From Candidatus Hermodarchaeota archaeon (GTDB taxonomy: Archaea; Asgardarchaeota; Lokiarchaeia; Sigyniarchaeales; SOKP01): a stretch of DNA of 40,272 bases. Below the pieces are notes generated by a model, which was given only the letters and a program-made list of their open reading frames with translations, did no database searches and was not told the origin of the DNA. This document shows positions 8,237 through 14,723 of this stretch, piece by piece; within the stretch, counting starts at the first letter, position 1; every line of letters begins with the position of its first letter. The DNA lies in the NCBI GenBank assembly GCA_048885525.1, contig JBHLLP010000027.1, positions 7,118 to 47,389 of the forward strand. Reading direction: 5' to 3'. Made by a program: the position numbers and the translations under genes.

Positions 8237-8767
8237 ATGAAGAACAAATTATTACAATGGACACTTTTTGGCATGATTTTTATCATTATCGTTGGGTCCT
8301 TATTCCACTTCGTATTTGAATGGCTTTTTTCTTGGCCTCCTATTGGAGCAATCACGGCAGTCAATGAAAGTGTTTGGGAACATCTAAAACTTCCTTACTG
8401 GCCACTAATAATATTTTCCTTAATCGAATATAAATTTATAAAAGAAGAAGCAAATAATATTATCATAGCTAAAAATCTTTCTGCAATAATAAGTATAAGT
8501 ACAATATTGATTGTTTTTTATTCATATACAGCTATTCTTGGGACAGAAATTCTTATTATAGACATTCTAAGTTTTTATATTGGGGTGGTTATTGGACAAA
8601 TAATTAGTTATAAGATATTGACATTAAATGAATTACCAAAATGGTTAAGTATTATTTCATGGATAATTCTTATTGGTTTTGGGTTATCTTTAGTAATATT
8701 TACCTATTTGCCACCACATCTCCCTATATTCCAAGATTCTGGGACAGGATTATATGGTATTTTATAA
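8237..8767 (+). CDS. Integral membrane protein, DUF6512-like
   Basis: About 5 TM segments with GSLFHFVFEW, AVNESVWEHLKL and PPHLPIFQD motifs. Confidence 0.7.
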   Translation: MKNKLLQWTLFGMIFIIIVGSLFHFVFEWLFSWPPIGAITAVNESVWEHLKLPYWPLIIFSLIEYKFIKEEANNIIIAKNLSAIISISTILIVFYSYTAILGTEILIIDILSFYIGVVIGQIISYKILTLNELPKWLSIISWIILIGFGLSLVIFTYLPPHLPIFQDSGTGLYGIL

Positions 8768-8903
8768 CATATTTAAAACAAATAAATATTTACGAAAAAT
8801 AATATAATTTATTTTTTCCTTATTTATTCTAATTAGATTTTGGAAAAACAGTTTTTTCCAACTATCAGTGAATAAAAAAAAAATTTGAATATAGGAGAAA
8901 ATT

Positions 8904-10587: not shown

Positions 10588-11427
10588 TTATGTTGGACTA
10601 AATACTCCAGCAAATACTAACCATGCTAGAAACGTTTTAGATACAAGGCTTAAAAGTTGATACACTCTTTCACCGTATAAATAATCCTTCCACTTTCCTA
10701 CTCCTTTATATTGCAGTATCATATTGATAGCGAATGTGTTAAAGAAAAATAGTTCGATTCCGTAAATCAAATAAACAAATAATGGTACTTCCCCTCCAAT
10801 GGTTTCAGTACTTATAAAGTATGCTGTAATAACAATCCAAGGAACTGCTCCAGCAATAACACCTAAATAATAAGGACCCCATTTAACTTTCTCATTCTTT
10901 TCTCTCGTATATACATTATATAGCTCCATCATTAGACCAAACATATTCATCAGTGCATTTAATACAAAAATCATAAACAATGACCAGAAATCCCAGACTC
11001 CAAAGAAAATAGCTATTAAAAAAATCATCACTGAACTTGAAAGTGCATACTCAAACCAACGTACTATATTTATTCCCTTTTTTAAATTTCGGACATAACT
11101 TTTATTAAGTGGATAGGCAATTAAGAGATGGGCGATAGCAGACATCAATAAGAAGGAACCAACAAATGCCCCTAAAGCACTAAAGACAAAAAGTACTGCA
11201 GGGTTAGGCGAAATAATAAAATCTGGACCAACAAGTTCAAACTTAAGGTAAAATGTGTAAATGTCTCTGGAAAAGGCAAGTTGAGGTAAAAAACCAAATA
11301 AAACCATGAGTAATCCTTGTACTAAATGTAAAATGCCCATATTTCTATTGAATTTTTTTAGATATTCAAATGAAATTGGAGATTCAGGTATTAGCCAACC
11401 TTCTTCTTTTTTATCGATAGAGTTCAT
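10588..11427 (-). CDS. heR: Heliorhodopsin
   Basis: 7 TM; LHLVQ (His), AIAH (His), RWFEYALSSS counterion motif, ERVYQLLSLVSK with the retinal-binding Lys. Confidence 0.95.
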   Translation of the reverse strand: MNSIDKKEEGWLIPESPISFEYLKKFNRNMGILHLVQGLLMVLFGFLPQLAFSRDIYTFYLKFELVGPDFIISPNPAVLFVFSALGAFVGSFLLMSAIAHLLIAYPLNKSYVRNLKKGINIVRWFEYALSSSVMIFLIAIFFGVWDFWSLFMIFVLNALMNMFGLMMELYNVYTREKNEKVKWGPYYLGVIAGAVPWIVITAYFISTETIGGEVPLFVYLIYGIELFFFNTFAINMILQYKGVGKWKDYLYGERVYQLLSLVSKTFLAWLVFAGVFSPT

Positions 11428-11767: not shown

Positions 11768-12244
11768 TTGAAGGATAAATTCAATTTAGTCGGTACAAAA
11801 ATCTCTGAGTTTAGTTTACCAAACTCTAGAGGTGAAACAGTCAATATCAGAGATTTAGAAAATGCAAAAAATGTAATAATTATATTATTTAGAAATATCA
11901 ATTGACCCTTTTGTCGGTGGCATGCTGCTAGATTAAGAAGAGACATTGAAAAATTTGAAAAATTGGATGGATATTTGTATCCAATCTTAGTAGATAATGA
12001 AGAAAATGCTCAAAAAATGGAACTGAAATATGCAAGAAAGTATGCAGTTTTTTATGATGAATCAGAAAAGGTTGCTACTATGTTAAAGCAAGAAAAAAGG
12101 TGGATTAAACTAGGTCGTATGCCAGGTTTATTAGTAGTTGACAAGAAAGGGATTATTAGATACGCATATTATGGGAAAAATATGCACGATATTCCAGAAA
12201 ACGACGAAATTTTACAAGTTCTTGAAAAAATTAATAACAGATAA
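11768..12244 (+). CDS. Peroxiredoxin-like (AhpC/TSA, thioredoxin-fold) probable selenoprotein, 158 aa, in-frame TGA at 11903-11905
   Basis: TTG start with AGTGA upstream. MKDKFNLVGTKISEFSLPNSRGETVNIRDLENAKNVIIILFRNIN-U-PFCRWHAARLRRDIEKFEKL continues in frame into track ORF 11963-12244 (..RMPGLLVVDKKGIIRYAYYG..). The TGA occupies the first Cys of the CPxC motif. Confidence 0.85.
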
Positions 12245-12314
12245 TGATTTGGTGGGAATAAAATAATAAAAGCGAGATTTTATTCTTTAAAGTTAGCCAC
12301 GCTTTTCCAAATCA
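12245..12314 (+). other. Structured 3' UTR, candidate Sec-recoding (SECIS-like) element
   Basis: TGATTTGG(12245-52)/CCAAATCA(12307-14), GAATAAAAT(12256-64)/ATTTTATTC(12277-85) and AAAAGCG(12268-74)/CGCTTTT(12300-06) are perfect complements directly after the stop codon. Confidence 0.45.
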
Positions 12315-12367
12315 AAATTTATTTTTTAAAAAGAAGTTTTGTAATACCTTAATAATTTTTATAGGTA

Positions 12368-13249
12368 TCAACTTATATAACGGTCAAGAAAATTACGCAC
12401 TACCGTAATATATTTCTCATTTTCTTCAACAAACGTCATATGACCACAATTCTCAAATATCGCTAGTTCTGCATTCTGTACACCACTGGCAATGGCTTCT
12501 GCAGCCTTTACTGAGCACACTCGGTCATGCCGACCAACCATAACTAACATAGGAAAAGATACAACTTTTAAACTATCTAGGACTTCAATCCCCCCATATT
12601 CTTCTTGTGCAAAATGACGAAGTATTTTTGGGGAGTATCTTGCTCCTGAGCTACGATTTTCGTATTCTTGCATTATTGGGTCGCGTGGATTAGCAAAGTG
12701 AAAAGGCATTTGATCTTTAAGTAGAGATTTTACATCCTCTTCCGTCTCAACGGTTTTTTCCTTTTCCCAGGATGCTGCAATTCTTTCTCTTAGTTCTTGT
12801 GGTTCTAATACCTCCAGATTATGTTCAACATGTTTAAGAAATTTTGATGAAGGAAATCCGCTTGAGATAATTGTTTGAATATTTTGATCAGGAAAATCAA
12901 CCGCGTTCTGAAGAGCTACAAGCGCACCAAATGAGTGTCCTAAGATCGCATAATTCTCGAGGTTCATTGCTCGTGCTAGAGAAAAGACATCTTGCGCCAT
13001 TTGCTTCAACGTCCATGTGTTTTCTGGAGTCAGATCTGAACGACCTTGACTTCGTTGATCCACAAAAATTAATTTGTATTTATCTTTAAGGGGATCGAGA
13101 TAATCTCCAAACATATGATGATCCAATCCTGGTCCTCCGTGGAGTATCAACAAAGGATAACCTTGTCCACGTTCCACTATATAGAGACGTGTATCTTCAA
13201 TAGATACATATCTACCTCCAGGTTTGTTTTCCAAATTAATATTTTCCAT
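12368..13249 (-). CDS. Alpha/beta hydrolase, proline iminopeptidase-like
   Basis: HGGPG oxyanion motif, DQRSQGRS, GHSFG nucleophile elbow, GRHD acid, CGH catalytic His. Confidence 0.85.
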   Translation of the reverse strand: MENINLENKPGGRYVSIEDTRLYIVERGQGYPLLILHGGPGLDHHMFGDYLDPLKDKYKLIFVDQRSQGRSDLTPENTWTLKQMAQDVFSLARAMNLENYAILGHSFGALVALQNAVDFPDQNIQTIISSGFPSSKFLKHVEHNLEVLEPQELRERIAASWEKEKTVETEEDVKSLLKDQMPFHFANPRDPIMQEYENRSSGARYSPKILRHFAQEEYGGIEVLDSLKVVSFPMLVMVGRHDRVCSVKAAEAIASGVQNAELAIFENCGHMTFVEENEKYITVVRNFLDRYIS

Positions 13250-13296: not shown

Positions 13297-13770
13297 TTAA
13301 ATTGATTTTAGCCCAATTGGAGTTCCTAATTGTTTGAATTTATACACAAGTTGATCTTTTGCTGTAAAAACGTCCCAGTCTTGAGTCTTTTCAAAACCAT
13401 GTACAGATAAGAAATTTTTTGAATATCTGTGTATTGCTGAATTTGCCATTTGATACATAACTTCTTTTTTTAATTCATTATCAGTAACTAATTCTAATTT
13501 TCCTTGTATTGATATAAAATAATAACTACTTAAATCTGGTTCGAAATGCTCAATTGATATACAAATATTTTGATTTTTCGATAGAATTTTTTTCTTTTTA
13601 CCATAATCTGTAAAGTGGAAAAATAAAACGTCATTAATACAGACGTATTGAAATGGAGCAATATAAGGATAAGCATCATCAATAAATGCGATTCTGCATA
13701 AAGAATGTGAATTAATTGCTTCCTTGATTTCTTTTTCTTTCATCTTAGGTAATTTAATAATAGTCATCAA
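13297..13770 (-). CDS. Pyridoxamine 5'-phosphate oxidase-like flavin-binding split-barrel protein (NimA-like)
   Basis: CRIAF..YPYIAP..FFHFTDYGKK..NQNICISIE..SIQGKLE pattern. Confidence 0.8.
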   Translation of the reverse strand: MMTIIKLPKMKEKEIKEAINSHSLCRIAFIDDAYPYIAPFQYVCINDVLFFHFTDYGKKKKILSKNQNICISIEHFEPDLSSYYFISIQGKLELVTDNELKKEVMYQMANSAIHRYSKNFLSVHGFEKTQDWDVFTAKDQLVYKFKQLGTPIGLKSI

Positions 13771-13799: not shown

Positions 13800-14723
13800 T
13801 TATCGCTTATTATTAGGAAATTTTACTAGATTTTGATTAAATCGAATATCATCAATTAGATATTTCATCGCAACTAATGCACTTTTTTCTTTATTTTTGA
13901 TTTCTAACATTAAATCAAAATTGAAATTGCTTGTTTTTATTATAAAGCTTTTAAAATGATTTATATCGATTTCGTTTGCATGTCTATATTTACCCTTATC
14001 TGGGTGTTCTGAACTGTAATGAACAATTGGTAAACCATCGCTTTTTTTCCAGGTTTTAATAACAAATTCTACAGCCCGTTCTAATGGTTCTCCTTGATTG
14101 TAACAATCATGATGATATGAGTCGAAAACAATTGGGATATCTGTAGACTCATTAATTAATAAACAATCCTTCAGCTGATAATTTTTTTCATCATTTTCAA
14201 TAACATAATGATTTTTTGTACTTTCATTAAGTTCTTCGTATCTTCGTATAAACCGTTTAATACTTTTTTTCTTATCACCATATACTCCTCCCACATGAGT
14301 GATTATTTTCGCATCCGAATCTAAACCTAATAATTCTAAAACCTCAACATGATATTCTAATTCTTTTAAACTATTTTGAACCACTATATCATTTTTTGAG
14401 TTAATAACAGTATATTGACCTGGATGCATCGTGATTCGCATTGAGTTCTTTTTTATATAAGCACCGAGTTCTTTAAATTGTGATTTAAAATATTCTTGCC
14501 AATTAAATTTCATGACTGGGTGAGAAGCAAAAGGAATTAAATCTGAAGTAATTCGAAAAAATAAAAGTCTATTGTAATTATTAAATTCTAAGATTTTAAG
14601 TAAACAATTCAAATTATTTTTAATCGTCTCTATAAGTCTTTCTTCTGAATAGCTTTTCAACCGAAAAGTTCTGCTACTTCTACAATCTAAAGTTAAATTT
14701 ATACAAGGATATCCAATTTTCAT
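13800..14723 (-). CDS. uvsE: UV DNA damage endonuclease UvsE/UvdE
   Basis: KIGYPCIN, FRITSDLIPFASHP, RITMHPGQY, HVGGVYG, IENDE, VFDSYHH, VHYS, DLMLEIKNKE. Confidence 0.95.
   Translation of the reverse strand: MKIGYPCINLTLDCRSSRTFRLKSYSEERLIETIKNNLNCLLKILEFNNYNRLLFFRITSDLIPFASHPVMKFNWQEYFKSQFKELGAYIKKNSMRITMHPGQYTVINSKNDIVVQNSLKELEYHVEVLELLGLDSDAKIITHVGGVYGDKKKSIKRFIRRYEELNESTKNHYVIENDEKNYQLKDCLLINESTDIPIVFDSYHHDCYNQGEPLERAVEFVIKTWKKSDGLPIVHYSSEHPDKGKYRHANEIDINHFKSFIIKTSNFNFDLMLEIKNKEKSALVAMKYLIDDIRFNQNLVKFPNNKR

Follow-up and report, generated by a model that had tools for sequence, protein, structure and literature searches.

The PrxL gene and its neighbourhood

The window referred to throughout is the whole stretch of DNA that was analysed, 40,272 nucleotides in length, corresponding to positions 7118-47389 of contig C27 in a genome with a completeness of 99.3%. 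On its forward strand lies a gene for a peroxiredoxin-like (PrxL) protein, and immediately past the stop codon of this gene the 3' UTR can be drawn as a Y-shaped RNA made up of an outer stem and two hairpins (Table 1). As had been noticed in the preliminary description of this DNA, the frame is continuous from a TTG to a TAA codon except for a single TGA, which is its sole internal stop and falls at codon 46, in FRNIN-U-PFCRWH. When the standard Table 11 is applied, the same frame is divided into two open reading frames, one of 45 aa (11768-11905) and one of 93 aa (11963-12244).

Table 1. Positions (window numbering) of the PrxL gene, its redox-box codons and the parts of the 3'-UTR element
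Feature	Position	Strand	Description	Reading
PrxL gene	11768-12244	+	158 codons, TTG start, TAA stop 12242-12244	Putative Prx-like thiol:disulfide oxidoreductase selenoprotein
UGA codon 46	11903-11905	+	First position of the U-P-F-C redox box	Probably read as selenocysteine, from TGA conservation in homologs
Cys49	11912-11914	+	Aligned with the BCP-type peroxidatic Cys	Predicted resolving partner of U46
Y-shaped 3'-UTR RNA	12246-12313	+	2 nt after the PrxL stop	Candidate SECIS
P1 outer stem	12246-12252 paired with 12307-12313	+	7 bp
Joiner	12253-12255	+	3 nt
Hairpin 1	12256-12264 paired with 12277-12285	+	9 bp; 12-nt A-rich loop 12265-12276 ending CGAG, AAUAAAAGCGAG
Hairpin 2	12289-12293 paired with 12301-12305	+	5 bp; loop UAGCCAC 12294-12300

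The two halves of the frame, which had looked intact in the preliminary description, turned out to belong to one and the same domain. The Pfam family AhpC-TSA (PF00578) spans the TGA and covers residues 8-132 (E 1e-19), and a match to the Redoxin family covers residues 8-144. An AlphaFold2 model of all 158 residues, for which 38 homologs were used, folds into one compact domain (mean pLDDT 95.5, pTM 0.91), in which the helix formed by residues 47-58 starts immediately past U46. The closest solved folds are those of Sulfolobus Bcp4 (3hjp, TM 0.88) and Bcp1 (3drn), that is, peroxiredoxins of the BCP/PrxQ type. Since a Pfam domain runs across the TGA and the model folds as one domain, the PrxL frame is not a chance open frame. 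Many orthologs begin with MKDKF..., and the TTG of this frame is aligned with their ATG, thus the start proposed in the preliminary description is right.

The divergent neighbour, located 340 nt upstream of PrxL on the reverse strand, encodes a heliorhodopsin (10588-11427; PF18761, E 4.4e-85). Of the 30 loci searched, 15 have a heliorhodopsin gene within 1.5 kb of PrxL, on either side of it and either divergent from it or in tandem, and the proximity holds also in distant loci, where PrxL identity is 46-55% and the host belongs to another family. Genes for a PNPOx-like flavoprotein (13297-13770) and for UvdE (13800-14723) are situated near PrxL as well. Such a neighbourhood suggests a link to light or oxidative stress.

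Decoding of the in-frame UGA

We searched related genomes in six frames, with read-through of stop codons, and a PrxL homolog was present in 38 of 61. Exactly one in-frame TGA was found in 38 of the 44 matches listed, at identities from 91% down to 36%, and one further match carried two; the five matches devoid of TGA comprised two paralogs with Asp at this position and three partial hits. After alignment, the codon at the homologous site was TGA in 30 of 32 copies of a first set and in all 20 copies of a second one. It occupies codon 44-46 in the 30 TGA-bearing copies of the first set. A cysteine counterpart does exist, namely the Chloroflexota homolog P0117 (Leptolinea sp., 37% identity), which reads VCPFCRRH. 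Both of the states for which the preliminary description had proposed to look at this codon, Cys and TGA, are found among the homologs.

The simplest objection to Sec is that PrxL is a decaying pseudogene, in which a Cys (TGT/TGC) or Trp (TGG) codon has mutated to TGA; the two short ORFs obtained with Table 11, as well as a public annotation that retains the C-terminal fragment alone, speak for such decay. However, all 50 TGA-bearing homologs that were aligned share the position of the TGA codon; they come from about 47 genomes and range in identity from 91% down to 34%, and no further stops or frameshifts occur in the PrxL frame. Moreover, in the 18 close orthologs, in which the Sec codon is always TGA, the numbers of variable sites at the first, second and third codon positions are 19, 7 and 35 upstream of it (44 codons) and 39, 19 and 88 downstream (110 codons). 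As the bias of variation toward third positions persists past the TGA, the downstream part is under the same protein-level selection as the upstream one, and we regard the pseudogene as extremely improbable.

The UGA could also be read as Trp or Cys instead of Sec, either by near-cognate read-through or because the code has been reassigned, and full-length database entries that show W at the Sec site speak for this. These entries (P0002, P0008, P0011, P0031 and P0056) are placed on contigs of up to about 2 kb, originating from ENA, Logan, JGI and, in one case, NCBI. In P0008 and P0011 the terminal TGA is read through as Trp too, and its rendering as W in P0008 indicates gene calls of the code-4 type. 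The Trp-containing entries thus look like artefacts that arise when short metagenome contigs are called in this way, and annotation based on homology could be misled by them. Furthermore, TGA is the terminator of 6 of the 30 long ORFs of the window and also terminates several PrxL orthologs; being an ordinary stop in both, it excludes a reassigned code. The position itself is redox-active, and at such positions pairs of Cys and Sec are the rule, as P0117 illustrates. Taken with a genome that retains genes for tRNA-Sec, SepSecS, SelD and, likely, PSTK and EFSec, these observations make decoding as Trp or Cys very unlikely.

The preliminary description had relied on Lokiarchaeota encoding the Sec machinery, and for this genome that held in part at the level of curated cut-offs: matches to tRNA-Sec, SepSecS and SelD exceeded them, while those to PSTK and EFSec fell below. 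The tRNA-Sec (63.6 bits) has the anticodon TCA (UCA) and is adjoined by the SepSecS gene (486 bits). The SelD gene carries its own in-frame TGA, and a second SelD-like gene is also present. The PSTK-like gene is the clear best match to its model (E 2.6e-45), with 155 bits against a cut-off of 290 for a model trained on methanogens. Similarly, the SelB/EFSec-like gene, which lies 5.4 kb from that of tRNA-Sec, is the clear best match; it scores 226 bits, where the bacterial selB model requires 242. The UGA of PrxL would accordingly fall to the archaeal/eukaryotic-type pathway, in which tRNA-Sec, PSTK, SepSecS, SelD and EFSec would take part.

The conserved TGA, the coding selection downstream of it and the Sec genes of the genome all support the earlier proposal of Sec insertion rather than a pseudogene. 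On these genomic grounds, Sec is probably inserted into the PrxL protein, and we are highly confident that 11768-12244 is one gene for a 158-residue PrxL selenoprotein of Lokiarchaeia, with its internal UGA decoded as Sec.

The redox box and the PrxL family

The preliminary description placed the TGA exactly at the redox Cys of AhpC/TSA proteins. This is correct in the sense that U46 stands where a thioredoxin-type CxxC has its first Cys, as phmmer aligned it with the first Cys of WCPYC in 3hdc; it is not correct for the peroxidatic Cys, since in the same type of alignment that residue of the BCP protein 2cx3 (Aeropyrum PrxQ) coincides with C49, whereas U46 falls on the Ser of S-P-V-C. In true peroxiredoxins, the position corresponding to U46 is the Thr/Ser of T/SxxC. 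These alignments thus describe a Prx scaffold that carries a U-x-x-C redox box, with Sec outside the peroxidatic position. The RGxWCPxC motif that had been named for this site does not describe the gene, and fits instead the other PrxL subfamily of Loki genomes (RGAW-U-YY-U, RGSW-U-IHC).

PrxL shares with the BCP/PrxQ-type proteins (Bcp4 3hjp, Bcp1 3drn and Aeropyrum PrxQ 2cx3) the fold, with TM values of 0.83-0.88, and the placement of C49 at the peroxidatic Cys, at a sequence identity of about 20%. It differs from them in the typical Prx motif PxxxT/SxxC, where Sec replaces the Thr/Ser and Arg42 replaces the Pro. As the catalytic Pro and Thr of this motif are absent, peroxidase activity of PrxL is uncertain. 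R117 is invariant in the family, and the phmmer alignment puts the active-site Arg of BCP three residues away from it. C49 is the sole Cys of the protein. If PrxL follows the established chemistry of Trx-fold and Prx enzymes, the selenolate of U46 would attack a peroxide or disulfide substrate, C49 would resolve the intermediate with formation of a U46-C49 selenenylsulfide, and a reductant of the thioredoxin type would regenerate the enzyme. By analogy with these enzymes, PrxL is probably a thiol/selenol oxidoreductase or peroxidase.

Some paralogs retain only one part of the box. In a U-only group, Sec is kept and Ala replaces C49 (U-P-Y-A), and in the two copies without TGA an Asp stands at the Sec position and the downstream Cys is kept (Asp-L-F-C). 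The sequences of these paralogs suggest, without fixing the exact chemistry, that the two positions of the redox box may act separately. Tandem pairs of PrxL paralogs were seen in two genomes. In G057 (locus L042, G057:C126:5576-6691) the first gene is a Sec form and the second an Asp-L-F-C form, and in G012 (locus L026, G012:C26:5844-7520) a U-P-Y-A form precedes one with U-P-F-C. Such an arrangement gives the impression that the two positions of the redox box have been subfunctionalised.

Prx-like (PrxL) selenoproteins of Lokiarchaeia have been published before (Mariotti et al. 2016, PMC4989117; Huang et al. 2024, PMC11227280), and Prx-like selenoproteins were found in 43.2% of the Sec-using Asgard archaea (Huang et al. 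2024, PMC11227280). The protein described here agrees with the published PrxL proteins of Lokiarchaeia in its AhpC/TSA fold and in having Sec as the first residue of a U-x-x-C box, and, as in the PrxL proteins of Mariotti et al. (PMC4989117), there is no Cys beyond the equivalent of C49. Moreover, orthologs with the segment XPFCRWHAARLRRD and an MKDKF or LKDKF N-terminus are contained in the supplementary Prx-like files of Huang et al. (Lokiarchaeia_GCA_013375485_U_3 and GCA_016839585_U_3; PMC11227280). As orthologs with an identical site already stand in a published supplement, the finding of PrxL is a correct rediscovery; the family and its occurrence in Lokiarchaeia were known, and the gene adds no new biology. 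The bacterial Prx-like/SelL-related selenoproteins with UxxC or UxxU (NCBIfam NF040769) follow the same redox-box logic, and differ in having a SECIS within the ORF. NF040769 is the best NCBIfam match of PrxL, with 47.8 bits, which falls well short of the 120 bits set as cut-off for this family.

The close database homologs are named as proteins of Lokiarchaeota/Promethearchaeota. As the preliminary description had supposed, the gene was missed by ORF calling: the product on record (P0042) is an 89-aa C-terminal fragment that begins at residue 70, and the relatives in NCBI and JGI are fragments of 88-106 aa labelled redoxin or peroxiredoxin. The value of the gene is therefore corrective, since in standard annotation both this genome and most NCBI/JGI relatives are represented either by a catalytically dead C-terminal fragment or by a Trp artefact.

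The Y-shaped element in the 3' UTR

In all TGA-bearing PrxL copies inspected, a Y-shaped element of the kind outlined in Table 1 begins 0-40 nt past the stop codon, and the UAGCCA loop of its hairpin 2 is near-invariant. When 14 divergent copies were folded singly, the Y shape was the minimum free energy (MFE) structure in 12; the exceptions were the window copy and the copy at L048. The MFE structure of the window 3' UTR is a different fold, in which the loop AAAAGCG is paired with CGCUUUU, and its z-score is only -1.26. This pairing was considered as a pseudoknot or an alternative fold and rejected as a conserved feature: apart from the window copy, all of its 7 pairs can form in a few close relatives only, and just 1-4 of them in distant copies, in which hairpin 2 holds.

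The pairing of the Y element was assessed by covariation. In an alignment of 58 distinct copies, which was fitted to a covariance model and thus leans toward the structure, double-sided changes were found in 17 of the 21 pairs, in comparison to 4.1 from shuffles, and none of 500 shuffles reached 17; 95.3% of the cells of this fitted alignment were paired, against at most 58% when the partners were slid. In a MAFFT alignment of 26 copies that had not been fitted to the model, double-sided changes affected 7 pairs, where 1.5 were expected. RNAalifold, run on the plain MAFFT alignment and limited there by AU-rich sequences and misaligned distant copies, returned hairpin 1 only, with a weak energy. 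The three most distant copies (L047-L049) were beyond the reach of our model R1, so that their Y shape comes from single-sequence folds only, being the MFE structure for L047 and L049; the MFE structure of L048 is devoid of the outer stem.

The model of the Y element has one match in this genome; of the 151 genomes of the class, 74 have one or two matches. We inspected 20 additional matches, and all 20 follow closely, on the 3' side, a PrxL gene in which the homologous codon is TGA, two U-x-x-U forms among them. Neither of the two Asp-form paralogs is followed by the element. No other conserved structure was seen downstream of the PrxL genes.

The known signal in these organisms, lokiSECIS, consists in its published form of AUGA, a 9-bp stem, an 11-nt A-rich loop ending in AG, and then GA. 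In the genome studied here, canonical lokiSECIS elements are found directly after VhuD/FrhD-like genes, an HdrA gene and a UU-containing gene. One of them also lies 5 nt past the stop of a 159-codon ORF outside the window (C1:79293-79766, forward strand), which matches no Pfam family and has two adjacent in-frame TGA codons (..VVHAD-U-U-ADV..). Homologs of this ORF are present in 23 of the 26 genomes searched, G000 (the genome of the window) included, and all have exactly two TGA, down to 22% identity.

Behind PrxL, the situation is different. The 200-250 nt downstream of 32 PrxL loci were searched both for canonical lokiSECIS (AUGA or GUGA, a stem of 8-12 bp, a loop, and GA or AA) and with the loose type I model of Huang et al., in which GA precedes a stem of 7-15 bp with a loop of 8-20 nt and [G/A]A comes after it. 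Neither pattern gave a consistent match, and what was returned were scattered AT-rich chance matches. Within 250 nt downstream of the PrxL gene of the window there is no canonical element. Rfam returned no matches for the whole window at gathering scores, and none of its SECIS families matched 12150-12420 at E values up to 10. As there is neither a canonical lokiSECIS or eSECIS-like element nor an Rfam SECIS match, the recoding signal of PrxL can only be inferred. The lokiSECIS description is based on PrxL.1 and PrxL.2 of Lokiarchaeum GC14_75, which belong to the other subfamily (RGAW-U-YY-U, RGSW-U-IHC); unlike them, members of the MKDKF...INUPFCRWH subfamily have no SECIS flanked by AUGA and GA. 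As the subfamilies are different, the lack of a lokiSECIS here does not contradict the published description.

The Y element has several features in common with lokiSECIS and with the type I eSECIS-like elements of Asgard archaea: it stands directly after the stop codon, and in its hairpin 1 a stem of 9 bp is capped by a loop of 11-12 nt, A-rich at its start and closing with AG. The lokiSECIS at C5:23521, with the loop AAAAAAAACGAG, resembles this hairpin. The differences concern the base of the stem and the overall shape. The stem of hairpin 1 lacks the 5' AUGA and the 3' GA/AA and is flanked by variable nucleotides (GUGG, UAAG and others on one side; UU, CU, AU and others on the other), and the whole element is built as a three-way junction that also includes an outer stem of 7 bp and another hairpin, of 5 bp, with the UAGCCA loop. 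The 3-nt joiner followed by an invariant GA could be taken for a kink-turn or k-junction, a reading that was rejected, as the partners of the GA are U-C in Watson-Crick pairing and no conserved GA occurs on the other strands. Thus, the basal G-A of hairpin 1 pairs canonically with U-C and forms no GA quartet. With an apex like that of lokiSECIS and no conserved GA opposite the basal G-A, the element has the appearance of a SECIS variant without kink-turn.

From the distribution and shape of the element we infer that it is likely the SECIS of PrxL. In such a signal, hairpin 1 would mimic the lokiSECIS apex, and the three-way junction with the second hairpin would replace the AUGA/GA kink-turn core. 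Alternatively, the Y element might be a terminator, a stability element or a regulatory element linked to PrxL, Sec being inserted by means of another, undetected signal. The AUGA/GA core, the defining feature of lokiSECIS and eSECIS-like elements, is indeed missing from it, the first sequence model matches PrxL genes only, and in P1 and the hairpin-2 loop sequence is conserved beyond what pairing needs. However, a function unrelated to Sec would leave unexplained why the element follows every TGA-bearing copy inspected and is missing after both Asp-form paralogs, one of which is in tandem with a Sec form, and why hairpin 1 matches the lokiSECIS apex. That no other conserved structure was seen downstream speaks against a separate signal. 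Finally, an architecture-only descriptor found the same Y design at C52:8808, about 12 nt after an unrelated ORF of about 45 codons with an internal TGA, which means that the design is not restricted to PrxL. For these reasons, we consider a terminator or regulatory role unlikely.

The second locus (C52 ~8660-8890, forward strand) is outside the window. It contains the mini-ORF ..DDDCYSTS-U-NML.. and then the Y-shaped element, with a 6-bp outer stem, a 3-nt joiner, a 9-bp hairpin with the 12-nt loop GAUAAAUGCUAG, and a 5-bp second hairpin.

A SECIS role for the Y element opens the possibility, which we judge to be evenly balanced, that the PrxL genes of the MKDKF...U-P-[FY]-C type and their UxxU and U-only paralogs across Lokiarchaeia use a distinct SECIS class without kink-turn, the design of which recurs behind an unrelated mini-selenoprotein gene. 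We did not find a Y element of this kind described in the main texts of PMC4989117 and PMC11227280 or in passages of PMC13188914 on Asgard archaea. The interest of the locus is thus confined to its 3' UTR, where a covarying, kink-turn-less SECIS candidate is found beside canonical lokiSECIS in one genome. If the candidate is true, EFSec of Asgard archaea, or a helper of it, would recognise two SECIS architectures, and this would bear on the origin of the eukaryotic kink-turn SECIS.
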